Shown one piece after another: positions 9,322 to 40,877 of a stretch of 64,000 nucleotides of DNA. The notes beneath the pieces were generated by a model. The model made no database searches, had not been told where the DNA came from, and was given only the letters and a program-made list of their open reading frames with translations. How positions within the stretch are numbered: position 1 is the first letter of the stretch; every line of letters starts with the position of its first letter. Made by a program: the position numbers and the translations under genes. Source of the stretch: Pocillopora damicornis (Eukaryota); NCBI RefSeq assembly GCF_003704095.1, contig NW_020846189.1, positions 186,001 to 250,000 on the forward strand. The letters run 5' to 3'.

Positions 9322-12300
9322 ATGGCTGCATCTTTCCTCAACAGGCTCGGAATATTGGGTATGGGTATCGCCTGTGTCGGCGGTGTTGTCAACACAGCCC
9401 TTTTCAACGGTAATATGAATTTTTACTTTGAGAATTGCTCGCATGCTGAGTCTCAGTTTCGATCGGTCGAACTTTAAGAAGCTGATGAGTGCGTTTGACA
9501 ACTGATATAGCTCGAGTATTTTAACATCTTAGGAATACAACTGAGTTGGTACGTTTGATTTGAAACTCTATTCGGAACTTTTTCAAGGAATCTGATCCGT
9601 TAGCTGCTAGAACTAAAACTGCTCAATTTTATCCTTTCCTTGCTTCGTTTGAACCCACAATCAGTACTTCAGCTTTAGCATTAGGATGTTAGGATGGGCT
9701 AGTTTGCTTCTTGGACAGCACCAGTTAAAGCAGCACGTGCATGAAAGTTTTAAGGTGATTTATATGTTTGAAGAACTTTTCCGAAGAGTTTGTGAGAAAG
9801 GTTATCCTGACAATTCTTTTTGAAATAATTTGTTTTACATCAAGTTACATAAGCTTTGTTGGTCAATTGGCTAGTATCAGGCTCCTTTATCTCAGCAAAT
9901 GCCTGGCTGATTGCATAAAGGTTTGTACAAACTCTGTATGCAATTTTCTAGTGATTGTTATCAAGATGGCTTAATCAAGAGATCTCCATCATTGAATTTA
10001 AGAACCGGCAACATTGATCTTACATTTCACATTTCAAACTTTTTTATTCAGTAAATTTTCAGATTATCAGTATTACATTGGCTGATCCACTAATAGCCAT
10101 AGCTAGTCTAAGATGGGTCAATAGTTAAGATTGAGGTAGCTAACTAAACTATTTAAGTTAAATTTCAGTGCCTAAACCAATTGTTCATTTGTTGTACTCT
10201 TTAGTTGAAGGAGGTCATAGAGCTGTACTGTTTGATCGATTTCAAGGAGTGAAACCTGAGGTAACAGGTGAAGGAACTCATTTTCTCATTCCTTGGGTGC
10301 AGAAACCAATTATATTTGACATCCGCAGTCGACCTAGAAATGTCGCTGTAACAACAGGAAGTAAAGGTAATGATAAATTTGTAGATAGTACACAATATAA
10401 GTGGAACTACTTGAGAGTGGAAGAAGTATATCTACAAGTTATTCTATTTCTAATCTGGACATAAATTCTTCTTGCAGATTTACAGAATGTCAATATTACT
10501 TTAAGAATTCTGTTTCGACCTCAGCCACATATTTTGCCCAAGTTGTACATGAATCTTGGGGAAGATTATGATGAGCGTGTTCTTCCTTCCATCATCAATG
10601 AAGTGCTAAAGGCTGTGGTGGTGAGTAAACAGAGATTTCCTGCTTAAATCACTATTTCATTTCTAGAAACAATCAATTTATAAATTCTTCTTATAGCATG
10701 AATACATTGTCAAGTTGGAAGTTACTGGTAATGAGAATAAAGAAAATCATGAACTAAGGGAAATTGCCCTGATATAACTTCCATTCTTTTGAGAAAGTTA
10801 CAAGAGAAAATACCATTTGGTCATTAGTTGGTACAAGTGGTTATCAGATTTTGGAAGTGAGGGGGATAGAATATTATTTGAAGTTAAATGATAATTTCAG
10901 GTCAAGGTGATTTTTAACCAGTTTTATATGTTGTTGACACAGAAAAATACTTAACAGGTTTGTATGAACTTCAGTATACACAGTATTAGTGTATAAGATA
11001 TATTTACAGCTCCCCAAGCACTTCACGTCAGTGGTTATCTTTTTCCTAGTCTGATTACCCAAATTGTTTGGCTCCAGAAGTAAAATGTCCTTTCTTCCTT
11101 AGTTCAGTTATGGATAGTTATTTAACACAAGTGGATGGTGAAAAACATAAAGTTTCCATGGGCAAATTGACTGCTGTGGAAAATTTTGAGAAGCTGACAT
11201 TTTCAGCATTAGCCTTTTTCAAAATTTTTGCAAAGTGTGTGATTGTGGTCATTTTAGGCAGTAGTATGAGTGTTTTTACTTGTCTTTTAATACTTAACAG
11301 GCCCAGTTTGATGCTGGAGAGCTCATAACACAGAGAGAAGTGGTAAGCGTCATTGTTTTGAATGAAGATACTTGTAGGCAGAGAAATATTCCAAGAGCCA
11401 AAGATATGCAGTCTTTAAAAACATTTTTAAAAATTATTTTATCAAATGCAGATTTTTTTTAGGGGGGTGGGGGGTGTGGGATGTTAGGAAGTGTTTGGAA
11501 ATTCAACTTGGCAGTGGAAACATTGCAGTCAAGACTATTGCTTAGCCTGACTCTCACACTGTGAGACAAACAAGTAAATGTTTATTTGTCTATAAAACCA
11601 TAATGAACAACGACATTTCTAAGGGTTTTTTGTGGTTCTCATTCATGTTAGTATTTTGAAGACCTGGAAACCTACATGTAACATTTTACATTCTGCATTC
11701 AATTTGCTGTAATTTATTGATAGTTATTAATAAACAAATATGATTTCAATTGCAGGTTTCACAAAAAGTGCAGGATCTACTGACGGAGCGAGCTGCAAGT
11801 TTTGGGCTTATTTTAGATGATATATCTTTGGTGAGGTCTTGCTTTTATGTAAAATTCTAAGAACTAAATAACGTACAGATTGTCAACATACATAACTTAA
11901 TGTATTTTTCCTTTCAACAACATTATCATATTTGTTATTCAAAGGTGATAACAGATCTGTTAAAAAAACTGTCATGCTTTGTTGCAAGGATCTACAATCT
12001 TCAATTATAATTCACATTGATAACTTTTTGATGTTGAAATTAAATCTGAATGAGGCACTATTTCTATTTCAGACACATTTAACTTTTGGCAAAGAGTTTA
12101 CAGAAGCTGTGGAAATGAAACAAGTTGGTGAGTAACTTATGACAAAGTTGGTAATTCTCGGCTGGCAAAGTTGGCAATTCTTGGCAAGAATGCTGTAGAC
12201 TTTTTTTGTGAGAAGTAGGAAGTTCAATTTTTAATATTTATGTGTGTGAAGATCTTTCAGGAATAACCCCTTCATCAGTTCCAGCAATTATTGCCAAATG

Positions 12301-17501: not shown

Positions 17502-19447
17502 ATGTTAATGTTCATATTATTGACTCTGCACTTGGCTACTGAGGTAAATATTGTATTTAATCAATTTTAGCGTGAGCCTTATTTAAAGCCTTTTGCTTAT
17601 AAATGTTAATGAGTTTCTTATTTTTTTCCCCATTTGGCGAAAAGAGTTTTTCTGCAGCTCATCAAAAGAGGCGAGGAAAATCTATTTCCCGTAAGTTGGA
17701 TGATTTGACTATACATTTAGATCAAGGCTACTTTGGTTAATTTTATATGAAATATTCGGAATTTAGGGTTTAGGCTTAAAATTATTTGTTTTGGAAAGAA
17801 CGTAAAATATCTGTATAAAAACAAGCAAAAGTCTTCAACTTCTACTCGAATGATAACAAGCTCGTTTTAAAAAATAACAGCTGGCGGAATAAATAATTCA
17901 TCTACACAATGGATATTAGGAAAATCAAGTTAGATGTATACGTTAAGATATTTCAAAATGACTTACCTGCAGTGTGAAAAATTAGCACAGGATTTAAATT
18001 GTTCTGCCTCCTAAGAAATAATACCTAGCCTCATCGAGATACCGCTTTTCCACTTGTTTAATGTAATTTCAAACTGCTTTTTTCAAGCTGATGGTCTTCG
18101 TTTCAGTTGCTAGGATATAAGCTCTTAGCTGCCAGTATCATACCACACCCGCTAAAGAGCCCAATTCCCGCTAAAATCTCTAGAGGAAATGAATACTTAC
18201 TGAGTGCGTGCATTCAAAATCAATTACTCTTGGTAAAAACTGAAGTAAAAACCGTACTAAATGTAGAAAAGCGATCTCAAAAATGTTGGAGTTTTTCGTT
18301 CTAACTGCTCTAATTTTCGTATTCTATAGTCAACCAACACGGACCTCGCCGCAGTGGTATTCTTGAAATGGTGCTGGCCATTCCCACATCGACCACACCC
18401 ACTAATTATGTTTTCATGCATCAAAACTCGACCGTGCCCTCTACAAAAGATAAAGGCCGAAAATTCGACGCTGTCAACAAAGCACCCTCCAAAACAAATT
18501 TGTACTCTGTAGTAAACGAGAAAAAAGTGACCAACGGTGTGTCTGTTGTTAAAAATGCCACAAACGGAATGAAAAACTTGACGACATATTCATTTGCGCA
18601 ACCGAACAGTTTTCCACAGCCAACTAGTATTCCACCAATCGATACAATGTCGGAAGCATGGCCAAATCCAATGGGATCGATCGATAACGAAATGGAGGAC
18701 ATCGGAAGTCCAACTTCAATGCAACCGATTGCGAACGAGATGAACGATGAAGAAAAAATACCTGGTATAGCTGATATTTCCGACATGGAGCGTATTCCGT
18801 TAGACTTTCAAGAAGAGGAGCCATGGGAAAGGAGTCAAGCTACTGCCAGTCACGTGACTCACAGTCACACCACGCACGGTCTTGATGGTTCTGGTGTTGG
18901 CCATGCTGCGCGTAGGCATGTTGTTCCTGCTCCGCGTAGACGCAGGATGAAGTTAGATGTTAAGGACTGGAATAAAGTGACTGGTGCATATGTGAGAAGG
19001 AGGGAGTATCATACTCAGAGAGGTCAGCTGAGAATCTGGAGTACTACGCCTAAAGCTGGTCGGTTGGGAAGGAAAGGCAAGTTAAAGTTCGAGAATGAAA
19101 TTCCCCCAATCCACAAGGTTAGAAAATTCACGATGAACAAAACCTGTCCTCCCTGTTCGTTTGTGAAAACGAGGAAGTCGAAAAAGAAAATGTCAATTCC
19201 ACCTCCCAAACCTATCGATCCAATCCAGCCATTGCTTGAAAAATTTGAAAAAGAGAAAGAAGTCAGTGATATTAAAGAACACACAGTGGACATTGAAAAA
19301 GTTCAACCGAATGAAGCAATTGATAAACATCTGAAAACTTTGGAAAATCAGCCAGACATCACATCAATTTCTGAACATCTTTCAAAGGAACAAATTCAAG
19401 ATATCGTGCCGATAGAAAATCATCAACTAGAACTCAAAACAAACTAA
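17502..19447 (+). CDS. Uncharacterised, probably secreted precursor-like protein (418 aa, or 429 aa with optional micro-exon)
   Basis: Long ORF 18368-19447 preceded by acceptor ttctatag|18330 (phase 1). In-phase upstream exons: 17502-17543 (MLMFILLTLHLATE|gtaaat), optional 17658-17690 (LIKRGEENLFP|gtaagt), 18107-18203 (LLGYKLLAASIIPHP...EYLL, A|gtgcgt). Hydrophobic N-terminus, many di- and polybasic sites, no recognisable domain. The last exon is well supported; the upstream exons are inferred. Confidence 0.7.
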
Positions 19448-20369: not shown

Positions 20370-23300
20370 CTATACTTCTATTCTGTCGATGATAGAATCC
20401 AATAGCTGCATCACATCCTTGTCCAGGCTGTCATCGACTCTGGGTTTTTCCGCTTCTGTTTGCGCCAGGGCCATGTTGTTATTATTGTTTGAATCATTGT
20501 CGTCCTGTGTTTTTCCACCAAGTGTTTTCGAAGTTGTCTCCATGCCAGAATGGCTTGCTGTAATAACAAAAAGTGACAAATTTTATACAAGTGTTTCTGT
20601 GAATATCTAAGTATGGAAAAAGACACTCAGAAATAAGCTTTTGATGTGCATTATCGTTTAAAGAGGTCGAAGACTTCTAGGTAACCAAGTGGTCAGTGGG
20701 TGAGTGCCAGTATTTCCATCGTAATCCTCCAGAATTAGCTTCGCTTATGTTTTTTTTTAAAGGAGTCATGTTTTATGAGACCAAATTGAGTCTTTAAAAT
20801 CATGGAGTCTGACAATAAAAGATCGCGTTCTCCAGAATGGCTCCTTTTTTAGGTTTCAGGTAGTTTTACAGACAATATCTGTGCTATTTTTTAGTATTAA
20901 GGTTTTTCCCATCTATAAATTCAAACTCATGCTACCTTCCTTCCTGTTCTTGTCAGCCACACCAAAGGGAAGATTTACGTGTGGTAAAGACAACCTACTG
21001 CTACAAACAGTTAAGTCTATACTCGTCGCTCGTCGTGAGAGATTAGCTTCTGGGCAGAATCGCCGAGATACGCCTGTATGGTGAACAAGATTGAAAACAG
21101 CTTAATTTATACATTGAATTACAAGGAAGGAATTGAGTTCTTAGCTTTATTTGTTGATTAGGGTCGTGCACTATGGCAAATAAAAAGTGTAATTCATAGT
21201 TTTTAGACATATTTTATCTTTTTCATGTTGTCCAGTTGCTGTTCAGAGATGACGAATCACGTCATCATTTTGTAAGAGAGATGAGGTATCTGTCACACAA
21301 GCCACAGATGGACAGTACTAGTGTCCGCGCCGAATTTGACGTCACAAGTGCTGTGGTGCAAGGGAAAGCAGGTGTAGAATTAGTTTTGGAGTTTACCACA
21401 TGAAATACACGGGGAGCAAGAACTTACTTAGGGTTCTCCTGCTGGGGCGTTTGCCTCCACACACACTCAGCGCCATTTTGAACACAAATAAGTAACCTCG
21501 TCTGTATCGCTGGCTCATCCAACCGTACAGCGGAGGATTGACGACAGCATGAAGTAGAGAAATAACACTTGTAAACACCACAACTTTGGTCACCGGCTCT
21601 CGGTCAACAATCAGACAATAAAGGTTGTATAGCTGTGAAGGATAAAAGATTGAATCAGGTTAGTTTGTTGATGCACATGCAACAGTTAGTCAAAACAGTG
21701 GTCAATACACCTTGAATTAAAGAAACTTGAGCGAGTTTATGTCAACGGTGGCACGTGACCTAGTAGGAAAATTCTGTTTTTTAATTTGATCAGTAAAACT
21801 GAGTACGAGTCCTCAGTTTTTTAATCTAATTAATTACAAAAGTCAGACTATGATCAGATTGGGTTTTTGATATTGGTTCGTGATTCTCTCAGTTATCAGA
21901 TATGAACATGAAAAGTTTTACTCGAGGTTGTGTTTTTTTTAATTTCTGCGCCAATGAACAAGAAAGATCGCAGAATAGTGGACAAATTTTATATGATGAC
22001 ATAGACTTAAGAGTCCCTTTCTTCAAAACGAAGATCGCAAATATGTGACGTAACTTTCTCTTTGTGAGACCTTCATTCGGTATTGTCCGAATGAAGGCGT
22101 TCGATTATTAAAGCACAGACACCTTATCATCTTCTGCATAATTTAAACAGACCTTTATGTCGCATTTTGACATATTTTCACATGTAAATTCAGAAAGCAG
22201 GCATTCTTTCAATACCAGATTTGGCGATCAAGCATAACCGCGAGTTACAGGTTTACGTACATTTACATTTACATTTATCATCTTACAACATCTATAACAC
22301 ACATACTCGCAAGCTCCTAACTAATAACTAAAGCGCTACAACTAGGAAATATAAAAATAGGAAAAAAAAACAACAACAACAAAAAAACTAACTAATATAT
22401 GTACCATGATGTAGATTTCGCATGTTCGTTACATAACTTGACCAACCCAAGAGAGCGAATTCTTAAAAATACGAGTCTCTCTCCAGTCTTATCAAAGTTA
22501 AGTGAACTAAAAGGGATAGAACCCTGTCTAACATAACAAACCGTGCCACAAAATACGAAGCAGGCCCACAGATTCCTTTGGCAAAGACAAACGTTAATCG
22601 CTATGTCACGAGCGTGGAAGAAAGCAATTTTACCGGCTCCTAATTGCTATGGTACTCTTTTAAAAGTCAATCTTTACCCTCATTGAAATCGCGCTTTGAA
22701 ATAAATCTCTCACTCACCTAGCCTGGGCGGCCTGTGGCTTATCTTAAATCAACGGTTCCTGTGCTAAGCACAACCACAATTAAAAATGCATTACGTAGAA
22801 GGATCGATAATTGAACAGATTGTTTTGTTTTGACCTGTCGACGGGCAGACAAAGAGTCCACTAGGTTACCTTTGTTAAGCCGCTTAGATGACAATATTTA
22901 TACTGCTTCTACGCAACCCATATTGAAAAACATTCGACGGATGAGTTCTTGTTCCTCGATTAAACTGAATTTGATTAACTTAAAGATGTTTCAGCCGCAA
23001 TCAATATACAGTATACATTACTTTAGGAAGCCGTAATTTGGGAGTTATCAGACTTTCGAATGCAGTCATCTTTACGAGATGGATCTTTTGTATACTTATA
23101 CGTCTGATCGTACAGTCGCCTGCTTTAACTGTGACATTGACTGACTCTTTAACTTTTATATTAACACGGCGTCGGTGTTAGTAAGCGGTCGTTCGATTAT
23201 AAACCGAATTACTGACGATGTATTCACACTCAGAATCACCACTTAAGATACAAGTAATCATACGAAACGGAAAGATTATCTTTGTATTTTGAGGAAGCAA

Positions 23301-24556
23301 GTCTGCTTGTTAGGACTAGAACTATTTGTAACATCTGAAGGTTAATTGACATCTTTCTCAGTTCACATCCCAAATTGATGGCTGAGAGACGTGCGCGGAG
23401 ACATCAAAAGCACACAAATGATTTTGGTAAGTTCAATTTGGCGAATAGCAACCGGCGATTGTGACTAAGAACTCAACAAAAGATTCAACATTAACCAAAG
23501 AACTTGTGTTTTCTTGTTTTTACACCTGCTTACACAACTTTGGCATAAAGAAAGCCTTATTAAATCGGTTTTCAATGTCATTATTTATCACATTTCAAAT
23601 GACTTGTTCACAGAAGTACGATTAATTTTATTATTTTTTCCTCAAACATTACTCACCAGGAAAGGTAACCAGCTAATGTAATAAACAACTACCACTATCG
23701 TCATCATCTTCGTCAGCTTTCTGATATTTCTCACACCGCTTGTTGTTCCTAGCGACTGTAGTTTATCTTTGCAATTTTGAGTGCCATGAGGTTCATTTTC
23801 ACCGCCTCCCGACATAACAGTTTGTCGCTGAATAAACATTTTTCCTGAGAGTTTGATCGTAAAATAAGAAACCAACACCGCTATCAATTGTATTGCACCA
23901 AGCACCTCTATGTAAATGGCATATGCTTTACCCAAATTGTAGATCTGCGAAAAACACTCTCCATTTCGAAATCCTGAATGTCCGACGCCAATGAAGGGTA
24001 AAATAGCGGAAAATATGGAAAAGAGCCAAACTCCAAGCACAAATTTCTTCATGCGTGAAACTGTTATGAGAGTATGATGTCTAAAGGGCTTTACTAATAA
24101 CATAGCGCGTTCTAAGGCCATTACCGTGACTGTGGTTGCCGCAGCAAGTCGAAATGTATATACCAAACCTATAAACAAATTGCACAAGGTTTCTGTCATG
24201 TGTCGTCTCATGTAGTATTTCACAGTCGTTAAAAGCTGAAGTGCGGCAATCGAATCCAAGATATCTGCTAAGGACAGTGAAAATAACAAAACGTCTGCAG
24301 GTGTCCAATTTCGGTAACACGCAAGTGCTGTAAGGACTAACACGTTTCCAAACACTACCAGAACAATGGCAGACTGGAAAATTAATCCAAAGAAAAAAGG
24401 GTTGAGATTCTCTTGTGTTTCTGGAGATGTTGTGGTGCTGTTCGTGTTGTTCCTAAGAAATCCGGTGATGTTTTCACTTGTGTAAGCAGCTGATGTAGAA
24501 GTCGTAGGATCGGGCCATGGCGATAAAGTCGGGTTGTTCCACAAGGACGTGTTCAT
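20370..24556 (-). CDS. Class A (rhodopsin-like) orphan GPCR, prostanoid-receptor-like; paralog A, ~476 aa, 4 exons
   Basis: Exons 24556-23657 (TM1-6: GN, LSLAD, ERA, SWLP|gtgagt), 21632-21428 (TM7 NPPLY, helix 8), 21073-20936, 20557-20370, all in phase. N-terminus rich in N-x-S/T sequons. An alternative in-frame ATG exists at 24685, but 24556 has aaaATG context and a candidate acceptor lies between them. Confidence 0.88.
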
Positions 24557-27500
24557 TTTCTCGGAGACTTCTAGGTTTCGGTTCACTGGTTCACTGCGTT
24601 CAATTGGAAGTAAAGTGTTTGTAATGCACGCATGCCTTAAATTAGCCTGGCAGTTTTTGCAGTTGTGTAAACATTCGAGCTTCATAAATTTCCGCCGATA
24701 TTAACGTAGATTTGAATAAAATTAATAGTTCCCCCCATGAAAAAAACAATCGCAGCAGGAGATCAGAACGTCACACCGCAAAGCATCTGGTAAATTTCGA
24801 GGGAGCTATCTATAGTATAAATTATTTCTTAGCTTCCAGTTTATGTAACGATTTTACAAGAGTCACTTTTCAGAATCTTCATTTACCCCCAAAAGAAGCT
24901 TTTCACATCCAGCTGAATCATCATTAACATAATAAAAAGGATATTTTTGTATACGTTTTTATTTGTTTTGAGTTTCAGCTTGTTTACACGAAGTTTTCGC
25001 AACTCTTAAAAAGCTTGTAAAAATGACAAAAGTGAGAAATATGTCATTGTTAATACAGAGCTGTGTTGATACAGTCCAATGCTTAAATAAAAGCTATTTT
25101 GTTTCATGTTACGATTTAACTGCAAACTAGAAAACTCAATCGAGAGCGAATCTAATGGCGTATCCAAACGTTGATATGTGTATCATCTAATTTGCTATCG
25201 CATCATGCATCACATGACTTTGAAGAGCAATTCCTGACAAGCACATCCGTCATTAGCGTTCTTATTGGCGTAAGAAATCTTGGTGCAAGGTCAAGTTGAA
25301 AACTTTGTTGTTAAAGATGTAAATTGATGAATGTGGTTTCCATTCATATCTTTACCGAAGGCTGGCAGGTGCCTACCTAGAAGCCCCTCCGAGAATTATG
25401 CCCCCTGGTGATCTCATCAAATGCGGAAATACTCAAACAAGTGACACGCCATATTGCGGTCAAACTTGTACTTATGAGGGGAAGAAAGGCTCGATACAAC
25501 GTTCGACTGATGCTTAGTCCTCCTTTTCTTCTTCATCATAAATTTCTGCAATTCCGAGAACGAGATCTCTCATTCTTTTCCTCCCCTGTTTTCTCCAATT
25601 TTTTTGGGATATAAATTTGCATCACGTTTGTTTCACTCTAACTCGGTTTCCCTCGCAGCACGAAAGTCATGTGATCATGCTGTTAGTGACTTTGTTTTAT
25701 CATCCTGTGGCTTATAATTGTACAATTTGAAGTTAGAAATGTATTCATTAAAATTAAATGACATACAACTGAGAAAATTTAATGCAGCCATTCCATGCGC
25801 GCTTATCAAAGCAGAGAATTGTGGCGTCTAGATCGGCGCTATATCCATTTTGATGTAATTGTTTATTATCCTAAAAAGAGCGATTTTAATTAAGTTGTAA
25901 TATATCTTTGCGCATATCTTTTTATGGATCGGGAAGGAATTTAGTTTTTAAAAAATTGAGGCTCCCAACTGCAGGACAGGTTTCTAGAATTGTAGTTTTC
26001 ACGACGTCTTTATCTGTATTTTAATTTTTTGCGACGCACACTCTACGACTCCAGTGTAAGACGCGAAGGCGGTGCAACGATTCCATATCTCGTGATTTAT
26101 TAGCAAAATCGATGTTTTATAAGATTTCATATTTGCACGAACCGTTCAGAACATCAGGAGTGGCCATGAAATTCGAAATTCTCGCTTAGTTCAAACAGAT
26201 CCTTTTTTGTTATTTTCATGCCAAAATCCCTTTCTAGCCCTTTTTTACTCGATCTACTTGTACTGACACAAATCGAAAATTGAACTCAATTGAAAATAGT
26301 TGGATGCTTTTTTTGATCAGGTTGTTCGTTTATAATAATTGTGACAGACAAACCGAGCTGAAACATTCACGAAGTATTCTGAAAAGACATCTTTCATAAA
26401 AGCAAAGTCCGGAAATTCCGTATAGCTGTCTCTAATATTTTATTTATAAACTCACCACTGACCAACCATGAACTAGATAGTTGATTCAGTTTATGATAAG
26501 ATCGATAACTAGGTGGTGTTTGCTGAATGATTATTAACAGTTTTTAAAGTAAAGTTTCCTCTAGAGACAGATCAGTAGATATACCTAAAAGCTTCCTTCA
26601 TCTTGGCTGAAGCCATCCCTCTTTGCTCTAATTGACAATGTTTTTAAACTGTGTACTTAAAAAGTATACATTGTTTTTGTGAGATGTTTTGACGGCAGAC
26701 TGGCTAGATTCGCATCCGTGTGCAAATAGTGACTGTGTTCTGTTTTCTTCTGCAAATAAGGCAGCCAGAACACTAGCGATCAGGAGAAATAGGAGGTAAG
26801 TTGAACGAGAAAGGAACGTATTTATATACAATATATGTGTGGAAATTTCCTTCAAGTTTGTTAAAAAGACTATGCTCTTCAAAGATTGAGAATAGTCGAG
26901 CTGATAGTATTTTCGATTCGTGTTGATCTTATATGGTTAAAATTTTGCACTAGAAAAGATTATTTGGTTCATGGCACACGAACAGTTAGTCTACCACTCA
27001 GAATATTTGACTGAAGGATAACTCAGGTAAATCGTCAACGAATGAAATTAGACAGGTAACGTCAAGGATGCGCCATTTTAAAATTCACGACTGCGCGGAA
27101 TATTAACGAGGGTGTTTCCCATTCGGCGAAATCTCATATACCGATTTTTCTCTCGGGAAATAATTCGGACTTAAACTTTATCATTTTTTTATTAGACACG
27201 CGTCGTGCTAATGCTGCTTTTATGCTCAATTTCTCTTACGTGAGTTTTTTTCCCCGTAACTTTCTATCGACTTTTTTCTTCCGATTATGAAGCGAAAATG
27301 CGTTATCTTATGTGATGGTTCACGTCAATAAGTTTTCTGCGAATAGCTTGTCTGTCTCCACCATCCACCCGAGAGACATCTAAATTGTCACAGAGCCACA
27401 ATAAAACAAATTGTTATTGACTAAAATCATAACAAACTTGCTAGAGCCGGATATTAGAAATAGCTCATCCCAAACACCTTCCCTTACAACAGATATGTGT

Positions 27501-28065
27501 CTTTTTTTCGGGTTCTTAGAGTTATTGTATCATGCTATTTTTTCCTCTATCCAGCTGTGCTTTATCAAAATTTCCTCTCCCACTCCCTCACCGTCTATAT
27601 TTCTCGATCTTTGACACGACGTTTTTCAGTTTTCCCCATTCGACCTCCTGAATTTCAACATTTTGCTCGTTTTGAAAGGCGTGTTACAGCACAAAATGAT
27701 AGAAAAGGCAGGTGTGAAAAAAAGTTGCTTGGACCTGGTTTATTTTAGTCGCACCAATAGAATTGTACATAATTTATGAAAATGAGTCCTGTTCTGCATT
27801 TGATCTCTCGTTCCTAATTCACGGTTGTTTCGTTCACTATGATCATCACAGTTCACTATTGCTGTTGATAAACTTGAAATAAAGAAATGATAACCATGGT
27901 AATGTGGACAAATAAAATAGATGTGGAAAACCTGAAAAAGAAATTGATCGGTAATGGTGCAATTCAAACCCACGACCGTCCTGAATTAAAATTCTTTCAA
28001 GGATTCCATAATAAATAGAAAATTTTCATAGATTCTCTTGATGTTTTCATAAATAATGTAAGTTA

Positions 28066-28250
28066 GCTCGGCTTGGTAGCTCAGCTGGTGAGTGCGCTGC
28101 ATCAGTTTATCTAGACGGTCATGAATTCCAATCGTGTTCAAAGACAATTTTTTTTCAGGCTTTATCTTTACAGTTACTTAGATATCTACATGAATGCAGT
28201 TAAAATTCTTATTGTGCAGTTCAAAATAATGATAATCATTATATTTTCCC
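28066..28250 (+). mobile_element. Degenerate tRNA-derived SINE-like repeat
   Basis: A-box TAGCTCAGCTGG (28077-28088), decayed B-box, then TTTTTTCAGGCT as at 2.8 kb. Confidence 0.5.
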
Positions 28251-31200
28251 TATCATTGTTCATGGACAGTTATGCTCCTCCCATCTTAATTACTTAGGAA
28301 CAAGGAGATCGTCTTCAATAGACTAACTTGCACAGTGTTTGTCAAAGAAGTCAAATGAAATAAAAAAATAGCCTAAGGAAGGTGTCCACATGAAAAATAA
28401 CCTTTTTATACAAAAGTTCGTCTGGCGCCAAGTTCGCACACCAATGTTAAGAAGGTACCTCAGGGAAACTGTGCCATATTCTAATTATTTAAGCTTTTTT
28501 AGTGTTTTTTTTTTAATTTGGGAAGCAAACCCTATAGACGCATGCACCAAAACAACAATGACTATATCATAACTGCGTAGCATTTCCAATTTAGACCTGA
28601 TAATCTCTTGAAACACCATTATGTATTTAACATTCTAACATTTTTGTTGAAAAGAACCATAAACAGCTTAACTACATGTAGCACAGAAAAAAAAATTTTG
28701 AATAAACTAAACCAACCAAGTATTCACCACCGACAATTAAGCCTACACAACGTATTTGTCGAATAATTATTCATTCGAAACTTAGTTTGTAAACGAATAG
28801 AGCAGGTGGAAGAAAACACGTTTAAAAGGATCTGTCAATTAGCAATTATGGCTCTCTGTCTCCTTATGAACATGACAATCACGATCAACTTAGGCTTTTA
28901 GTCCTTGTTTTGACAGTAAGATAAACAAACTATTGAGTTATTCAGACACCAAAACAGCGTGTTGTTGTCCATTCACATTGAGTAGCAGTTAGAAAGAATC
29001 ACTGGCACCAATAGGTAAGTAAAACTAGCTTTGGTCAGATAAGAATGTCTGCATTTGACACAAAAATTTACAAAATGAACTGAAATTCAGTTCTGAATTG
29101 TGCAGCATGAGAACAGGATTTCCTCCTCATAATTAAGTACTCTTGAATAAAGAATTTTCCTCAAAAACATTTAAAAGGAAACACCTATCAAAATTTTGTC
29201 TTGAGCAAAGAAGACTAAAGTTTATTCGTTTCAAGGTATAAGAAGTTCCCTTTCGTTAGTGTTACGAACGCCAAAAAATTTTATCCTTCATAAACTATTA
29301 TATGGATAGAATTCTGTGAATGGGCGAAAGCAGCCTCATTATCAGATAAAAGTACATTAATTACACTATGGATTTCTCTTTCCTCCATAGCAAATTCCAA
29401 GTTTGTCTGACTTCCTTGCGCAATACATTGACAGTTTGGTTCTGTATTGTATTTCTTATGATTACAAAGATCACAAAGCCTAAAAAGTCTAAAGCAGTTT
29501 TATTTTGATTTAAATAATGTTAGAACATATCAGTCCGTATGATTCTCCTTTCCGTATGATAATGTTTACCTAAAGCAACGGATTTTTCGATTACTTGTTT
29601 CGTTATACTTTTAAAGAGGAATAAGTACAATCTAGAATTTAAGGAACTTTTCCTTATGAATTTTTTTCTTTCATTTTTCACCAATGAGAAAGATCGGCAG
29701 TACCCAGTCAAGGGTCCATTCTGAACTTTTCATTTTGAGCAATATTATTTTCCGTTGATTTAAGGTAGCTCTGAAAATTTCTACAAAATGGGGGAAAGAT
29801 AACTGAATCTTAATTGGCAATTCCATAGTAGCAAATGAGAATCACCAAGGGAAAGAATGATCCATTATATTTTCATGGGGTCAACGAACTCGTTTCTATG
29901 CTGCAGGCAAACAAATCAGCGCAAAAAAATCGCTCACTTTTCTATCCAGCATGCGCGATACAACACATCGCTCGTGATTTGGCTTTGAAGTAGTAGAAGA
30001 TTTCAGTATCTGCGAAGATCATATGAAAATCGCCGTTGCACGGGCTCCCTCAAACGCAACAGTGATATGGGTAAGCACATACTTAAGACCCGAAACAAGC
30101 TTTAAAAAATGGCTTCAAGTGTTAAGATTTAAATTCCGTCCATCACTTGCAGGCAAATAGTGCCTCACGTCAATATGGGAACAAAAGTAACGAAACGTTT
30201 TAATCAAGAATTTCATACATTTGACTGGCACGAAATAGGATGTCTAATGTCCCTGAGTCACATTGTAGTTGAATCACGCCAGGGAAGTGATTAAACTTTC
30301 CATGAATGATTGGAGGCTCTGTTTTTCACCTAATGGACACGCGAGCCAAGCAACCCGACGACAAAATATACGAATGCGTGGTTTCACTTAGATGTTCCTA
30401 TCTCGAAAGGTCGGAAAAAAAAAATGTCTTGGGTAAGTCGGACTTCCGCCGATGGTTGATCTTGCCTAATTTCAAATGGCTTAATCTACAAAGTTCAAAG
30501 CCACAGAAGACAACCAAAAGGCGGATATAATTTGGTGCTTCCGATATGTAAGTTTAAACTTGTGCTTTTCTATCTATGTACAAACTAACGAGAGTTCGAA
30601 GATAAGCGATAAAGAGAAATTTGGCTCTCTTTTGCTATGCTCTGAATCACGTCCACGAACACCTCAGATCTACAGTACTGTCTCACTTCTTTTCTATGAG
30701 CAGCACCTTGTGAAAAAGGCTTAAAAGATACTTTGAGCAACCTCTTTACAGCAAAGATGAAAATGGCAAAATAACAGTGTTAACAAGAACGATTCAATAT
30801 CTTGAATTAAAAATTTAGATACGAAATCGTTGCTTTTCGCACCTAAAGGATACCTTTGTATTATCAAACTCATGAGCAATACTTTTATTAATAACTGAGG
30901 ATATCTAGTTTTAACCACAATTTAATCCGTAGGTATGAGAGGATTTTAAACCTCTTGAAAAAAAAAATTTCATGGAGACAATCTGACGGGTTCCCTCATA
31001 GCAGGAGTTAGGGCCTTTTGTAGGATTGCGTAATTAAGATTGAGTAAATAACATGGTTGGAAATATGAGGTAACTTAACAGTGGAAAATTGCCTGTAAGT
31101 TAGGTCTCTCTTTGGCGTCATTGACCACTATATTGATGACACAGGTAGTCATTGCGCCGGCCACGTGCATGTACTAGTTATGTGATGCATGTTTTTATAA

Positions 31201-31631
31201 CCTTTTTTGATTTATTGCCACAACTTGTTAACATAATTCACTGACAAAACAAAACAGGCTTTTTGAATGTTGAAGAGATTGATAATGAGTGTTTACTGAA
31301 ATTTTGGAACACTTGTTGATTTAGATAAAGCAAATCGCATTACATCTTATACTGTGATGTACTGCACCACGCTTCAAACAGACTAGCTGCATTTCAATGC
31401 CCATGAAAAAGAATATATATATATATATATATATTCACCGAACTACCGAAAATGTAATAAAGTGCACCATGCCAGCATGTTTAGCGTAAATTGCAAAGCT
31501 CTATCAACAACTGACCACAGTGCATTAAAACACAATTCTTTCACAGATCATTGCTTTACAATGCCAATGCTATGCTCTTAATTTGAACCATCCCTCAGTT
31601 AAGCATAGTAAGAGTGAAGTGCACAACAATT

Positions 31632-32085
31632 CAATATCCTATATACACTTCACTGTATTACGAACGAACTGCTACCAGCAGTAGTGTTCTACTGCGTACG
31701 TTGTAATAATTTGCGAAAATTTATCCTATTTGGAAAACGTGGTTTGCGTTTTTAAGCCGTTTATATACAAAGAAAAACGCTGCTGCTGGCACCATGCCGT
31801 GCTCTGCAGTCGGTGGCAATAATTTGCTAAAAGACGATATCCTATATAACCTCCACAGTATTACAAATACACTGCTACTGGCACCATGCCGTGTTCTGTG
31901 GTACGTGGCAATAATTTGCTAAAAGACGATATCCTCCACAGTATTACAAATACACTGCTGCTGGCACCATGCCGTGTTCTGTAGTACGTAGTAATAATTT
32001 GCTAAAATATAAAATACATAATCTCATATTACGAAAACGCTTCGGCTGGTAACATGCCGTGCTCTGCAGCAATAGTCTGCCAAAA
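31632..32085. repeat. Tandem array of ~80-90 bp units (3 good copies, 2 degenerate)
   Basis: Recurring CTGCTRCTGGCACCATGCCGTGYTCTG...AATAATTTGCTAAAA...CCTCCACAGTATTACAAATAC. Confidence 0.85.
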
Positions 32086-35000
32086 GCTATCCCTGAATTG
32101 TAAATTTACTTAGATTTCATCTTAGTTTCGGAGCCTTTTAATGTGCAAGGCAAAACTCACATTTTCTTGTTAGGGCGCAGGGAGAGTTTTCTCTAATGAT
32201 ATTCGAAAGCTACAAGCGCAGTATCATGTAGATTAATAGATAGCAGCAAAATCGAGCTTGAACCACAAAAAGCACAAAATCAAAAAAGGGCACACCTTAT
32301 CCTCGTGTAGTAAAAAGCATACAAAGTGACTACATTCATTTCCTGGTTTTGAAAAATTTAATCATATATTTCTTCAACGCCCAACGGTTTTTAATATAAT
32401 GGTGGAGATGAGAGTTCTTCTGCAAGAATCAGACATTTACTTCCACTTAAATTCCCTAATTTCCTAAGGATTAGCAAAAGTTACACCCTTTGGCATAAAT
32501 CGTTTTATCCTTTCAATTATGATGTTCTTCTCACAATTCGATGAAGTTAACGAGCTTGAATAAGTAAGGCGGAAGGATCTCTAAACTTTTAGCACCCGTC
32601 ATTTGTTTATCAAAGTGATACTCTTCCTTTCTGTTTGAATTCGACTCGTTCATGTCTTTGTGCCAGAGACATTAGGAAGCTTTGTTAAAGTATGTGATAA
32701 TCCATTGGCGTAATCCCTCATAAACTGTCTGATTAAAAGTTTGCAGGGTATTATGACAATTGTTTCTTTTCAACTGAGGAAGTCTTAAATAATTTGTGGC
32801 CACAGCTGTGTTATTTAAAAAATGCGACATTTCTTACGCCTCCTGTGTAATTACCATGTCTCAGTAGTGAAATTTTGGTCGATATATGCTTCCGGAAATC
32901 CTGGAAAAGGAAACAGACATCAGTTTATTTTCCCTCGAAGGCCTTAAATGGCTAAATCAAAGTTGAAATATTAGCTAACTTTGCCTTTGAGTAAAGGAAA
33001 AGGATTGGTATCTGGGATGTCTGCGTATCCATTCTCTTATATTCTTTCCCTCTTCTTATTTCCGTATCGTTGTATGAAATGTAATAACAATAGCATAGCT
33101 GCTTGAACTATCAAAAGAATCTTACTATGAAACATCCAAAGGAGCTTTCTGTGTCGAAAAATCTGGAAAAATATCCGGATAAATTGTATTTACTTAAGCT
33201 CATCACCAACCAATGTAATTTAAGCAAAAAATCCAATTGGATTGATTTAAGTTCGTTTACTTGGCTACGATAATCATACTGATAGATGTTGGGGTGAGGG
33301 GACCACATATGGTGTATCCCTGTGACACATTCCCCCTGCAGTCTTCTCTAACCTGGGTTATGACTTCCACTTCGTTTTATCGCGATGCTCTGTGTCGGAG
33401 TTCTTGTTTAACTGACCTCCTCCGTGCGCTTTTTTTATGGCTTTTTTCCACGCCCTCTTTTCGTTTAGTAGTTATAGAAGTAGTCTCTCGAAGATGAAAA
33501 TTATATCTCGTGTTACAAAGTAAAACGTTAAAAAGTATCGAAAAGATAAAAGTTGTAAAAACATGTAAAAAACTCGAAAAATGCTTCCAAAAATGTTCAT
33601 TTCTTCTTTGGGATTTGATTAACATCCCCATGCGTGTTCAGAGGTATTTTTCAGTGAGTATGTTTAGCCATTTGACCCGAACTTGGATGAGGTGAAGGAT
33701 CGGTTTACGAAGACTTAGTATTTGTTTGTAATGTTCTTCATCACTTTCCAACTTTCGCAGGCACTTTATAAAGCCCCTCAAATTCACAATTTTAAACTTG
33801 TAGGATTTTCTCATGGAATGTCCTGGCTCTCGGTAAGACTGACTTATTTTGTTTTGATTATGCTGGGCTGAGATATGCAAATATCAATCTTCTTGAAACC
33901 TCAGGGAGAGATGGGTTATCTTCAACAATAAAAATTTTGCACTATTTCACTAATAAACTGGTTTTACCATTTCGATATGCGGATGAACGATACGGAGATT
34001 CTTATGCACAAATGCGGTTACGAAATCCGTTCAGGATGTCACTTCAATTGTCTCACAATTTTACTCCCGAACCATCTTTATGAAGGGTGGAGAGCATACT
34101 TCAAGTTTTTGAAAAATGCACAGAACACTTCTACATCTTAATGCTATTACAATGGGTGAAGGAATCTTATTAATTTCTGGTGAAAGAGCAAATAATACTC
34201 AGCTATGTACATAATGAGCTAGGTGAAAAAAAAAAAAAAATGATTGAGATTAAAAGTGCTGGTTAGGATGGTGCGTTGTCGTCGTTTGTGTAAAGTGTTT
34301 TGATATCAGTAATATCTTTACTTTTGTGAATGTTTTTAATATAACATATTTGCTCAGTATTGGAGTCTGAAATTACCATCGAATATTGTTCAATTGATAA
34401 CTAAGCCATTTGATATATTGTGGTTATTACAGGAATCAAACAAGTCATCTATTTTGTTAAGAAAGAAATCTCCGACTTCAATCACTCTGATCGCAACAAT
34501 GAAAATAACACGGAGCAAGAGTGAAATTTCAAAGAAGCAAGCAATGTTGAATTTCCGAAAGCCAATGCACTTCAGGAAATTTTACCGAACCTCTGCATGG
34601 AAAACTCTTTCGTCAGGTATACAGCTAAAATGTTTATCGTAATAGTGCTCAATTCCCTCTTTGCTCTGATAAATGAAGGGTAAAGAAGGACTTTGGATTT
34701 GGTTCTTCAATAACTATAGCCTGCACCTTGTACCTCTAAGCCACTGGCTGTTTCTTAGCTTGAGTAAGCGCCAAGTATTTTTTAAGTCTTGTGTCTCTGT
34801 GAGGATATTTAGCCTTCTGGTAAGACGCCTTTTTAATTCGGTGTAAAATTTTTAGTCGTGGTAGTTAAGGCGCCCAGGGGGCCAAGATTAAATCGGAGGT
34901 TGAGTTTAGCTGAGACCACTTCAGCGCCCGGAAAATCAGTTCAAGGTCTCCCGCGTAACATTTCTTTTTCAAAAGGCTTCTCTATAATCGCTTCAGAAAG

Positions 35001-38000
35001 CCAGATTGGAGTGACAAAAACTCAGCGTTATTATTTATGACATGTAACCCTCGTAAACTTATGATGGGTGACACGCCTTTTTTTAGGCACATGCACGACA
35101 TCAAATCATTGGCGATTACTGGAGGGACACCAACAGTTAATGTTCGTGCTTTTTCTTTCAATTCTATCAGTAGTTTAAACTAAAGACACAGAAAAGGAAA
35201 ACTACAAACACTTATTGCGTGTTTCATTTTGGAATTATTCCCAGAGGTCACAATCTTATGCTTACCTAAATCATTAACTTGGATGAAAACCAGTTGAAAC
35301 AACTTTGAACCTTACAGCTGATAGCGGATCGTAATTTAAGACCCTTATTTTAAAGACTTGAATGGCAGCTGAGATTGCAAGCACCAACACAATCTGCATC
35401 CATGACCGACCCAGGAATATAAAGGTGCCTTGTACAGTAATAATATCAAGGTGAAAGTTGTACGAAACTAAAAAATTCACTCGTACAAGTGTGAAGGGTT
35501 TCAGTATGTCGAAACAGTTTTAAATTTTGGGTAACACGATTTTCAACACGATAATATAATAATTGCTAGTTCTTAGAACTTCTGGTGTTTGTATCAGGAC
35601 ATAGAAGCATGGTAAAATAGAGCGGTAGCTTTAAAAAAATTGAAAGTTGAGTATGTCGTAGCCACTATAAGCCTTTTTTATGAAAACCGTCCATGAGGTT
35701 CGCCATAACCACGCCCAAAAGCAGACAGTTTGCGACTTTTTAGATCGGGGTGATGATTGACATTTTCTCAAATATGAGGACAATACAACAATACATGGAA
35801 TCTTTGAAGAGGCTGTTAACCCAGGGTTAAGCTACTCGGAAGCGTGCCTCAGGATTTAATCAGCTTGGTAAAAGATTTATTGTTCCTAGATTAGATTCCT
35901 ACAGAAACCGTTAACCCAGTTTCAACTTGGAAAGAAACGAAAGTTTTTTTGATCACAAATTTCCATTCTTTTCGGCTTCTTGGTATCTTTTCGTTCTCAC
36001 CAGCACGGAAACGTGGTTAGAATAACCATGAGTCTCCGTTTTAAATTTTTTGCACTGAACGACACTGTTCACATTGAATGTATTTATTTTCATGCCCTTT
36101 CATTGCTATTTGGATCCTGTGACTTGTTTGCCAAACTTGTCGCAGTTCAAGGTTTTGAAGTTCTTGCTGCTTTAAACCCACGATGAGTGGACGAGACAGC
36201 AAGGGGGAACAGGTTTAAGTCTCGTTTCACAAAAAAACTCGGAGTTCTACTGAAAAAGAAGTAAGAAAAATGAGTCAATAAACCTCAACATAACACATAT
36301 TTACGCAATGTCAACGTTTAAAACATGGGAAATCAGTCTTACAATGAAATGATAATTTCTTTCATATTTCGAAGCAGTTTTATATCTTAATATTAAATGT
36401 GGCCATTTCGAATATCAACCACATTTTCCCCCTTTTCCTCCCCCACTGAGCCAGATGTTTATTAGGTATCACAATTTGGACATTTTTTTTTCAGTGGATA
36501 TCTCTTGGTTATGTAAGGCCCTAACTCCTACACGTGTCACTAGCGTCTCGTAGTACTTTTTCTATTTTTAGAATATCTGGAGCACTGAACGATTTAGGTG
36601 GAGTGGATTAACTGGTCTTTCGCTGGCAGGAATAGCGATTGACTTAAGAGTAAAGTGCATGATCGATGAGTAACCATCTATAAAGGATACATTTAAGAGT
36701 GATTAGCAGTTAAGTGTTTTTTCCGGTCTGTCCCGGAGTCTTTCATATAAGAATTTTCTCGTTTTCACCAGAAAACGAGAAAATTATGGATTTGATAAGT
36801 TTAAGTCCAGCTCTTGCTTTTGGAATCACATTCGATTCTTCGCTACCCAAACACCATCAAAGCGTGTGTACTTAAACGCTATTGTTATCCGAAAACAAAG
36901 CAAGGATCGGTAGATTCTAAAATCACTGCAAAATACAACTAAAACTGTTTTTCCCGGGAAGTTTCATGGCTTTGTTTGTCGGCAAAAATTCTAGCACAGA
37001 TATTTCCTTGTTCGCACTCTTTGCCGCAATAACTATTCTTGCATTTTCATAGTAATGGTGATTTCTGCGCGAAATGTAATTTTCTCCTCTTGAATTTGCA
37101 TGCGGAGAAAATCTGAGAAAGTTAAGGTCTCATAAAGTAAAAGGTTTCAAGGCGCACCCTTTTTTCTACGCGCAGAACACGCAACGCCGTGTTCGCGTGC
37201 CTCTAAAAATGGCACATACTAGATACTTAAAATGTGTCTGAATTAATCTTGTAATAAGGTAGGACTTTTGGTCTCCATCCCTGATTAAGGCTCCCAAAAT
37301 AAAACTTCGCTCAGAAGTACTCATCGACAATGAGAGTCCTTTTGTATGAATGAAACAAATGTTAAATCACCTATTTTGGTGTCATGGTAACTGATCCCTT
37401 TTGTGGTCTCACACCCGGCAGGTGATTATTTGCATCTCGTTAAAATTTGTTTCCATTCACAGTGGGCAGTGGATTCACTTGATTGTATTTTGAAGATAGT
37501 AGAAGAAATAAAAAGCGAATTTCATAATACTGTTATTTCCGGAATTTTCATCGACAATGGAAGATAGATCACGCTGATCCAAACACAAAGTAGCTTTCAA
37601 AACAACTTTTATCTGCACGCGCCATTGCAATTACATCTAAGCAAAGAATAACATATGCTACCTTTTTTGGAGAAAACACAGGATAGCTACAAAGTTCAAT
37701 TTCACGGAGTGTTAAAAGCGTCATCATATATTGTTTTGCCTTTATGTAATGCCCAAAGAACCTCACTCAGCTGGGTAAAACAAAGAAAGCATTTGTCATA
37801 TCTCAATATAATATGTAAAATTTTCTCTTTCGTAGCTCTGTACTAATTAGATAGTGAAGTGCAATTCAACACTTTAGATCCCTTTTGATGTCGAAAGGTG
37901 TGGATTCCAGACAGAGCTCGTCGATGAACAAATTATTTTCGTTGGAGTACCTTTCAGTCTGCGTGTAAATTGGTTTCTGCGATTAAGAGATTAGGGCACT

Positions 38001-38190
38001 TCCAAGTTACACTCAATTAAAGCTGTCAAGGACTCTCATAAAGATATTTAACAACCTGCGGTTAAACCTCACCATTCATTGCTGTCTTCTGTCTCTAATT
38101 GACCAACAGACGCGTGCCAAGGCTATGAGAAGTTCGAGGAGCCTCGAACTGATTTAAAGTTAAAAAAACTGTGCGTTCGTGAGAATACAA

Positions 38191-40877
38191 ATGGCCTCCA
38201 CATCTGTGGTTACCAATGCCGATACAACAAACATAACGACATCAGCTTTTACGGTGAAAGAAGAAGGAGATAATGCAGTAACTTCTCTGAGTCCATTAGC
38301 ACTTGGCTTATTCCTCGAAGCAGGTATTTTGGCAGTTGCTCTTGGAAATCTTTTGGTGCTGCTGTCGATAAAATTTCAAAAACAATGGGTCATTACAGAT
38401 ATTCTCCTTCTGTCCCTTTCAACGGCAGATTTCATTGGCGGAGCTGTCCCTCTTCAAATTCTGATTTTCGTGAACTATTTTGTCCAGAGGAGGTGGACTC
38501 CCTTTCTCTGCGGCTTCTATATAGTGGTGGTAAATGCGCTTCGCTTTGCCTCCGCTGGGACGGTCACGCTGATAGCTGTCGAACGAGCTTTTATGATTTT
38601 GTCTCCATTCAAATATCACACGACAATTACAACTTCGCGTGTGAAAAAACTTGTCATGTTCACTTGGTTGAATGCAGTGTTGTTCGCCTCTTTGCCATTC
38701 CTAGGAGTTGGAAAATCGGGTTATGAAGATGGTAGATGTTTTTATCATTTAACGCATTTGGGAAAAGCCTATGCTATTCTTATCGTATCTGCATCCTTCA
38801 TATTGTTGGCACTAGTGTTAGCATGTTATTTTGCGATCAAAACATCGAGTACGCAGTTTATTAAGCGACAAACAGTAATGGACACAAAAAACAAAAGTGC
38901 CGGGACGAATTTGTCTCGCGGGTCAGTTTCCGAGGATCCTGGGTGCGAGGGAGTGAAAAGAAGACGAAAGAGTAGCACGCATGGAGTGAGGGAGATTCAG
39001 AGACTGTCACTTATGATGGCCCTAGTTGTTTTTCTTTACTACATTAGCTGGCTGCCAATTTTGGTGAGTATTTCGTTCTGGAGTATTAAAATGTTGAACT
39101 TGGAAATACAAATTCTACCCAGCGAAGTCGGCTATCGAGATTAAGTCGTAGGTCTTTACTATACGGTTTCCGAAGCATTTCAGCTTAGAAATCACATTGT
39201 AAACGATAAAGTGTCTGGTAAAAATTCGTGATGCTGTTTCGTTTTTTTTTTTTTTTTTTTTTTTTTTTGCCAAAGAGAAAACAAATTATTTCCGTTAACA
39301 AAGTATCCAATTGACCAGACATACTTCATGAAACTTCAATCGTGAATCAAACAATCCAGTCAACGTACAATGGAGAAATAAAACCACTGATATACTGCAA
39401 TAGCAGCTTCCTAACTGAGTTATTTGTTTCTTTTATTTGCGGTGCGTCTGCCAAAAGCCAAAAAGAAAGGCAGTACCAATAACTGCAATAATCTCTCTCT
39501 TGAACTCTTGTGCGGTGAGGACCTCATAGGGTTCAACTTTCTCAGACACCTTCTATCTTAAATTTAGCTGTTAGTCTGTAAAACAAAACAATTTCAGCTA
39601 ATGGGTATCTTTTGCAATTCATCAGACTTCAGTTTATACATTAATTGACATATGAAATTCCCGATTTCATTCAGACTATTCAGTCAATATTGGCCTAGTG
39701 TTGCTCTTGATGGTCCACATAAGTCAGAATTAGAGCTGAAGATCATGATGCTGTCGAGAAGAAAACATCATTGTTTTCACATTATTTTCAGATCAGCAAC
39801 ATTGTTACCCTGATTACAGGCCACCAATCAAGTAAAGCTGTTGTTCTCCTCACGGGGATGGTCTCTCTGATATACGCTATGGCAAACCCGATCATTTACG
39901 GAAAAATGAGTTCACGGTACAGATGGGCTTATCGGCGAGTGTTTGCATCTCTTTTTCTTTGTGAGACTTGCAGGCAGAGATCAAGATCCTGGAGCATATC
40001 GTGCTCAAGGAAAAGTAAGTAAATTTGCGGGATCTATTTAAGACAAATCATCTTTGGGTCTCTATAGAATTTTTGACCGTTTGAACGATATGTTATTATT
40101 TCTAATCCTTCCTTGCCGGGAACAGTGTTCGTCCTTCTTTGTAGTAGCCTGAAAACCTGTCTCTCGTGTCAGATGAGCGTTTTATAGCTTTTTCTCAACT
40201 TTTCGTCGTATGACACTGAACATAGGATTATTTAAGATGGGCTACTATCATTGATCAGAAGAATTAGCTTGCCATGAAGAACTCCTTAAATAGATTTAAA
40301 AAGATGGTCAATTTTGATCTCGGTTGGAGAAGAGATAAATAATGGTCATTCATTTGTTTGGTGCGAGCGTGGAACACATAAAATCCGAGTCCTTAAGAGG
40401 AGTCTTTTACATTGACGATGCATTTCGCTTGGTCACTTACAATATTCATAGCGGTGACAAGCGTCCTATTGCGCATATTGCAACTATGAAAAATTTCGAA
40501 ACCGTTGCGTGCGTATATAGACGAAGAAAATTGTTCTTCTTTCTTTCTCTTTATTTGATCACAGCGAGTTGACAAATTAACATTTTTTCATGATATCCTT
40601 AGGCACACGTTCGCGCACCTTGTCGTTACCACAAATCTCAAAGGACCAAGAGCTCAAGAGAAATATTACCAAAGACGAAGGTCCTGAGTACCCAAAAATG
40701 GCGCATGGACGACATCAAGATTCTGCTGGACAGAAAAACGAGGGGCTACAATGCCCGGATGACTTTGCAGAAGGCGTGGTACTGGAATTTGGCGATGATG
40801 GAAACAGTTTTTCTCAAAATGAATTTACGAGCAGAGAAACGAACAGCTCTTACTTATCAAATGAGTTTTTACTTTAA
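38191..40877 (+). CDS. Class A (rhodopsin-like) orphan GPCR, prostanoid-receptor-like; paralog B, 456 aa, 3 coding exons
   Basis: Exons 38191-39063 (TM1-6: GN, LSTAD, ERA, SWLP|gtgagt), 39792-40014 (TM7 NPIIY), 40603-40877, in phase. Colinear similarity with paralog A (LPFxGVGxSG, CF, LGKAYAI, FIxRQTVM, YYISWLP). Acceptor at 38109/38110 implies a non-coding upstream exon. Confidence 0.92.

Follow-up and report, generated by a model that had tools for sequence, protein, structure and literature searches.

Two receptor genes in the window

The locus described here raises the question of what two neighboring coral receptors sense, and with which residue they would hold it. The window, i.e., the whole stretch of 64,000 nucleotides from Pocillopora damicornis that was analyzed, contains two genes of the rhodopsin family, A and B, which are oriented divergently and lie 13.6 kb apart. 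Gene A occupies the minus strand with 4 exons (476 aa) and gene B the plus strand with 3 exons (456 aa), and their products share 44% identity (155/350 aligned residues). Both display the hallmarks of class A (7tm_1, D2.50, C3.25, E/DR3.50, W6.48-P6.50, and NPxxY); they are two paralogous and intact class A GPCRs. The features of the locus are the following:

23657..24556, minus strand: gene A exon 1, from the start codon through residue 6.52 (TM1-TM6); ORF, Pfam 7tm_1 E 2e-27, donor at 23656
24149..24151, minus strand: gene A Arg3.36 codon CGA (R136); codon reading and translation
21428..21632, minus strand: gene A exon 2 (TM6 end, TM7 with Val7.40, NPPLY, helix 8 YRRGY); tblastn with gene B exon 2 (E 7e-10) and splice signals
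20936..21073, minus strand: gene A exon 3, predicted (C-terminal tail); AG/GT signals, resembles the tails of orthologues P0068 and P0075
20370..20557, minus strand: gene A exon 4 to the stop, predicted; AG signal, VxQLLDxxxxxI end as in P0068 and P0075
24557..38190, no strand: 13.6 kb spacer between the divergent start codons; from the coordinates
38191..39063, plus strand: gene B exon 1, from the start codon through residue 6.52 (TM1-TM6); ORF, Pfam 7tm_1 E 5e-25, RNA joint
38542..38544, plus strand: gene B Arg3.36 codon CGC (R118); codon reading and translation
39064..39791, plus strand: first intron of gene B, phase 0, directly behind residue 6.52; spliced out in the RNA contigs from 3 studies, site common to 8/8 clade genes of this genome
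39792..40014, plus strand: gene B exon 2 (TM7 with Met7.40, NPIIY, helix 8 YRWAY); sequence and RNA
40603..40877, plus strand: gene B exon 3 to the stop; RNA joint from 40014 to 40603, translation

An intron at the end of TM6 had been predicted for both genes, and a GT donor indeed follows residue 6.52 directly in A and in B, in phase 0. Gene B has two introns (39064-39791 and 40015-40602, GT..AG), and both are missing from the RNA contigs of 3 runs belonging to 3 studies; a fourth run reads through them. The exon structure of gene A is a prediction from splice signals and orthologue proteins. Named homologues of A and B were found in Oculina, Orbicella, Porites, Montipora, Desmophyllum, and Nematostella, and the pair seems to be linked in other species as well, to judge by contigs of equal length.

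An invariant arginine in TM3

R136 of A and R118 of B occupy position 3.36 both by the count from the ER motif and by an ungapped alignment with TM3 of beta2AR, where they lie opposite V117, as the original prediction had stated. The predicted lack of Arg7.40 and Lys7.43 was likewise confirmed: in TM7, which exon 2 encodes, residue 7.40 is Val in A and Met in B, and both have Leu at 7.43. In a family set of 95 rows (92 database proteins, A, B, and a third paralogue), Arg3.36 is found in 94, that is, in every row covering the site, the remaining one being a fragment that starts past 3.36; a single row among 29 outgroup class A rows has it.

Two other motifs that had been offered as prostanoid-like are present in A and B but were rejected as markers. 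The P-F/Y pattern of ICL2 is also found in beta2AR, and the LPxxGxG...CF motif, LPFxGVG...CF in the prediction, is also found in L018, an unrelated coral GPCR encoded by a single exon.

Probable ancestry beside the prostanoid receptors

The ancestry of the pair was assessed with trees of hand-picked rows, which include one vertebrate prostanoid receptor (stingray EP2-like) and no HCA or OXER1 row. The larger tree has 81 rows and 264 columns (LG+C20+F+G4), the columns of 3.36 and 7.40 and ICL3 having been removed; the smaller one has 48 full-length rows, without the exon-1-only rows and most of the long branches. In the 81-row tree, A, B, and 11 prostanoid-type rows fall into one 52-row clade (support 100/99) that takes in the stingray receptor, four insect PGR-type rows, and the coral prostanoid-like (EP4-like) rows, and amine, adenosine, and peptide-type rows, labelled from their motifs, remain outside. 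Within the clade, the canonical prostanoid group of 11 rows (98/87) excludes A and B, and the other 41 rows are weakly joined (82/67). The 48-row tree has the same joint clade (100/98) and canonical group (100/96), again with A and B outside, and joins the other rows at 92/93. The prostanoid rows sit on long branches in the tree.

The phylogeny that had been proposed as a check thus placed A and B with prostanoid-type rows, but its rejection of an amine grouping is marginal. Forcing the A/B group together with amine receptors changed the log-likelihood by -25.9 with 81 rows (AU p 0.076) and by -16.4 with 48 rows (AU p 0.036), such that this grouping is marginally rejected in the second set and not rejected in the first.

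The intron after 6.52 gives a further view of this ancestry. Genome searches revealed 6 more genes with a GT donor directly after 6.52, for a total of 8 clade genes, all 8 of which have the intron; in A and B it lies, in phase 0, at the same site as in the EP4-like L025, in L028, and in L029. Among 17 other GPCR loci, a small part of the 142 genome matches, 16 continue in one frame through TM6-TM7 and the 17th breaks earlier. Unspliced database rows behave alike: homology ends after 6.52 in one insect-type row (P0343) and in 17 of the 18 clade rows that were examined, a break judged from translations and not from DNA. Vertebrate prostanoid receptor genes have an intron at the TM6 end. The literature searched held no usable statement on its exact position; a splice variant of FP with six helices, given in one review (PMC3477067), is no more than compatible with a TM6-end intron.

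Rankings by similarity and fold point in another direction. The best PDB sequence match of B was beta2AR (E 5e-17), A matched beta1AR (E 5e-12) ahead of FP (4e-10), the paralogue L004 matched amine receptors first, and the family profile also found amine receptors first, with no prostanoid receptor among its top 60 PDB matches. With equal-sized profiles, B scored 107 bits against prostanoid rows, 122 against amine rows, and 149 against peptide/other rows, and neither A nor B scored higher with prostanoid than with peptide/other rows. Out of 10 diagnostic columns, 7 favor the outgroup. In sequence, A and B have retained a good number of generic class A residues that are gone from the prostanoid receptors. 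The AlphaFold model of orthologue P0002 (mean pLDDT 69, about 90 in TM3) has seven long helices and helix 8, and fold searches with it placed adenosine and amine receptors on top with near-tied scores (A1: Z 28.1, rmsd 4.2, 305 aligned); no prostanoid receptor was among the listed fold matches, a ranking that is uninformative at such distance. Mixed class A matches at 0.95-0.96 were obtained from the ESM Atlas, including EP2 (rank 4, 5 hits) and IP clusters, which we take as a lead only.

These rankings, together with the AU p of 0.076 and the names given by NCBI to the orthologues (adrenergic-, histamine-, or adenosine-receptor-like), would fit A and B being orphans of the amine or adenosine branch, with the prostanoid grouping a long-branch artefact and the motifs generic. 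We regard this as quite unlikely. The support for the clade is high in both trees and the AU p of the 48-row set is 0.036; the intron site is common with EP4-like L025 and absent from 16/17 other loci; and A and B have no Asp3.32, a residue that is not among the six commonest at that position in the 95 family rows, 76 of which have Val. In addition, A and B both reached their best profile score, 159-160 bits, with the L006 group, and L006 itself scores 148 bits with prostanoid rows and 125 with amine rows; thus, the link between A/B and the prostanoid receptors runs through intermediates bearing Arg7.40, which bridge both groups. The only match of gene A outside its family was an insect prostaglandin receptor, whose best match in the genome is gene A.

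Taken as an ancestry, the prostanoid-like scaffold of the original prediction therefore stands on the two trees, the intron, a tyrosine of TM2 (see below), and the insect cross-match, but not on the similarity and fold rankings. A and B are quite probably an orphan sister lineage of the prostanoid receptors and not members of that family by its defining residues. We found no description of this lineage in the open-access papers searched, subscription journals lying outside the scope.

Distribution of Arg3.36 and Arg7.40 in the clade

The 8 clade genes of the genome comprise three pocket types. Besides A and B, Arg3.36 is carried by L003 and L004, which have Leu or Gln at 7.40; Arg7.40 without Arg3.36 is carried by L006, L025, and L028; and L029 has neither. 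All 15 best PDB matches of L025 are prostanoid receptors. In the 81-row tree, Arg3.36 occurs in 30/41 sister-lineage rows and in 0/11 canonical prostanoid rows. A TM3 arginine "instead of" that of TM7 is accurate for A and B but does not hold as a rule of the lineage: among the 35 clade rows that cover both sites, Arg3.36 stands alone in 14 and Arg7.40 alone in 9, while 2 rows carry both and 10 neither, which rules out strict mutual exclusion. As related rows share these labels, the counts are no proof of compensation. Arg7.40 is found on both sides of the split between the canonical and sister groups and is therefore likely ancestral.

The pocket and its predicted ligand

EP receptors grip the ligand carboxylate through Y2.65, a Thr of ECL2, and R7.40, according to the available text of PMC12107139. 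Two-thirds of this triad is lost in A and B, which have neither the ECL2 Thr nor Arg7.40. Compared with the vertebrate prostanoid receptors (EP1-4, FP, TP, IP, and DP1), A and B share the joint clade, a tyrosine atop TM2, LPxxG at the end of TM4, and the TM6-end intron; they differ in lacking Arg7.40 and the Thr-Trp-Cys-Phe of ECL2, in having a shorter ECL2, in keeping the canonical W4.50 and Y5.58, in carrying Arg3.36, and in falling outside the canonical group. Around the disulfide Cys, ECL2 reads GECF (A) or GRCF (B), and the Trp of the prostanoid WCF is absent from the 12 commonest ECL2 endings, which cover 79 of 85 matching rows; 8 residues separate GxG from Cys in 82/92 rows. The tyrosine is placed at D2.50+16 in A and B and is present in 89/92 close homologues. 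It is one residue later than in EP-type rows and at the same position as in the insect PGR; counted at either +15 or +16, it is found in 28/52 clade rows and in 2/29 outgroup rows.

As the carboxylate-holding Arg7.40 of the prostanoid family is missing from A and B and Arg3.36 is invariant, the two receptors probably respond to an acidic lipid that is gripped in another way. Our main reading is that they bind an oxylipin whose carboxylate is held by Arg3.36, to which we assign a probability of roughly 0.45; this value applies jointly to Arg3.36 as the best mechanism for the ligand carboxylate and to oxylipins as the best ligand class. According to this reading, the common ancestor of the canonical and sister lineages would have had the intron, the tyrosine atop TM2, and Arg7.40; Arg3.36 would have been gained in the sister lineage, and A and B would then have lost Arg7.40 and the Thr-Trp lid of ECL2. 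Arg3.36 would take the place of Arg7.40 in holding an anionic lipid, with an oxylipin or a fatty acid as the likeliest candidates, and the carboxylate would lie further down in the pocket, at TM3, in the manner of HCA2. Through this arginine, binding would be linked to the adjacent Trp6.48/Tyr6.44 switch, and the intact D2.50, ER3.50, SWLP, and NPxxY would allow signaling through a G protein.

An arginine at 3.36 is also present in OXER1. HCA1-3 share this residue, and in the available text on HCA2 it is R3.36 that binds the ligand carboxylate, the R111A mutation abolishing agonism (PMC10043007). The parallel drawn by the original prediction with these receptors holds as an analogy at one position and probably not as kinship: HCA1-3 and OXER1 are delta-branch receptors, residue 6.48 is Phe in HCA2 and Trp in the A/B family, and neither HCA nor OXER1 appears in the listed top PDB matches of A, B, or the family profile. 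According to PMC11087051, the fatty acid receptors and the purinergic receptors are confined to bilaterians. The resemblance is likely convergence.

A precedent is offered by the insect PGR (Drosophila CG7497 family), which, like A and B, has no Arg7.40, an invariant TM3 arginine, and Tyr at D2.50+16. It differs in that the arginine is at 3.33 and not at 3.36 (R3.33 in 73/74 rows, Arg7.40 in 0/74), in its place within the canonical group, and in its known ligands, since CG7497 is reported as activated by PGE2 and PGD2 in the available text of PMC11761813. As this receptor responds without Arg7.40, prostanoid sensing without that residue exists, and we infer that Arg3.33 is its carboxylate anchor.

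The same ancestry could also have led to a receptor in which Arg3.36 holds a small non-lipid anion, such as a hydroxy acid, an amino acid, a sulfonate such as taurine, a nucleotide, or a free peptide C-terminus. The short ECL2 without the prostanoid lid, the retained W4.50 and Y5.58, and the use of R3.36 by HCA2 for small acids are all compatible with this idea, but the position beside lipid receptors in both trees and the retained TM2 tyrosine speak for a lipid, and we hold a small anion to be rather doubtful. The free peptide C-terminus bears on two Nematostella receptors, GPR216, which matches P0045, the orthologue of B, and GPR229, which matches P0094, grouped with A in the 48-row tree (99/92). 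Both were cloned as neuropeptide-receptor candidates only (Thiel et al. 2024, PMC11087051); in the parts of that study available, they have columns in the supplementary 64-peptide mix screen but do not figure in the main text or among the matched receptors of the dose-response file, i.e., they went unmatched. A negative result in heterologous cells may stem from poor expression. The words "prostanoid", "prostaglandin", and "lipid" are absent from the main text of the same paper.

Alternatively, Arg3.36 could be structural, reaching the sodium pocket (D2.50, S3.39) or pairing with an internal acid to set the basal activity, with a ligand that is uncharged or absent. The surroundings of the pocket are in keeping with such a role, as Y6.44 is invariant, residues 7.45/7.46 are unusual, Asp2.53 is present in 48/95 rows, and medusozoan members keep Arg3.36 with the acid moved from 2.50 to 3.39. 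However, D2.50 aside, there is no invariant acid among the positions of TM2, TM3, and TM6 that were counted, gene B has Gly2.53, and residue 3.36 of HCA2 is both switch and carboxylate anchor; a purely structural arginine thus appears unlikely to us.

Taxonomic range and significance

A profile search of 1.84 billion representatives was performed, and taxonomy was looked up for 30 proteins, 28 of them from its matches. The relatives of A and B among them come from cnidarians (Nematostella, Hydractinia, and the jellyfish Sanderia), hemichordates (Glandiceps, Ptychodera, and Saccoglossus), and echinoderms (Diadema, Acanthaster, and Patiria), and a Trichoplax relative on a long branch makes placozoan membership possible. 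The subfamily had been predicted as cnidarian, a restriction that has to be abandoned. No named member of the sister lineage from vertebrates or protostomes was among the proteins looked up; loss of the lineage in both groups is weakly suggested, many of the rows being nameless.

The oxylipin reading of A and B has a wider version, in which an unrecognized family of lipid receptors beside the prostanoid receptors pre-dates the cnidarian-bilaterian split, exchanged a carboxylate anchor in TM7 for one in TM3, and survives in corals, jellyfish, echinoderms, and hemichordates, the insect PGR having seemingly made such an exchange separately (3.33), and in which the coral members would be the receptors so far lacking for oxylipins of the lipoxygenase type or made by symbionts. 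This version is speculative and, on balance, we do not expect all of it to hold. According to a 2026 paper, prostaglandin-receptor coupling is still to be shown for cnidarians, and the receptors for most symbiosis oxylipins count among the unknowns (PMC13440314). The Exaiptasia "EP2/EP4" proteins (KXJ26289 and KXJ28775), proposed there as cnidarian prostanoid-type receptors, are comparable to our genes in that respect; the EP4-like gene of Pocillopora is L025, with Arg7.40, and not A or B.

A positive ligand assay would open the receptor side of oxylipin signaling in coral symbiosis and bleaching and would show a rewiring of the lipid-receptor pocket in early animals. The eight coral genes make up a panel sorted by pocket type, with a single residue to mutate in each, and clones of two Nematostella orthologues already exist for use in a cell assay.

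Arginine placement and the sodium pocket

The lineage to which genes A and B belong, a likely sister of the canonical prostanoid group, has a handy marker in helix 8: of the 25 sister-lineage rows with TM7, 23 show a YRxGY-like motif after NPxxY, vs 3 of the 39 other rows. Insect prostaglandin receptors, represented by P0093 together with 73 related rows from insects, lack Arg7.40, and an arginine occupies position 3.33 in 73 of these 74; the Drosophila PGR study (PMC11761813) nowhere uses the word 'arginine' in its main text. Arg3.36 and Arg7.40 are found together in the database proteins P0103 (Glandiceps) and P0112 (Sanderia), possible models of an intermediate state between the two placements. 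In the medusozoan-type rows P0106, P0107 and P0163, position 2.50 is Ser, Gly or Ala rather than Asp, and Asp stands at 3.39; the sodium-pocket acid has apparently been swapped from 2.50 to 3.39.

Genomic neighborhood of genes A and B

A-type and B-type proteins come from contigs of equal length in five other assemblies and in Nematostella, and two members in Diadema have adjacent accessions, which suggests that the gene pair has been kept over a long time. Other features of the window are:

6349-6720, minus strand: ribosomal protein S26 gene, exon(s)
10162-10461, plus strand: Band 7/prohibitin-like gene, exon(s)
18314-19447, plus strand: 377-codon open frame converging on the gene A 3' end, with no Pfam match

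Other GPCR loci in the coral genome

Further receptor loci of this genome include (local coordinates):

1474-2277 and 3351-3560: EP4-like gene L025 (G000:C3758)
9166-9402: second TM7-like exon (GLLNPALY) at L021, 5 kb downstream of L003 exon 2

L025 has Tyr2.65, the ECL2 PGTFCLF and Arg7.40 within AVRLAS; if this coral has a genuine prostaglandin receptor, L025 is the strongest candidate. The L021 exon is probably part of another GPCR gene. Neither arginine is present in L029/L032 (G000:C3313), a prostanoid-clade receptor with Ser or Cys at 7.40, a type kept in other corals. The Arg7.40 receptor L028/L033 (G000:C3843) has an additional phase-0 intron inside TM3; by eye, this locus adjoins tandem MFS/monocarboxylate-transporter-like genes.
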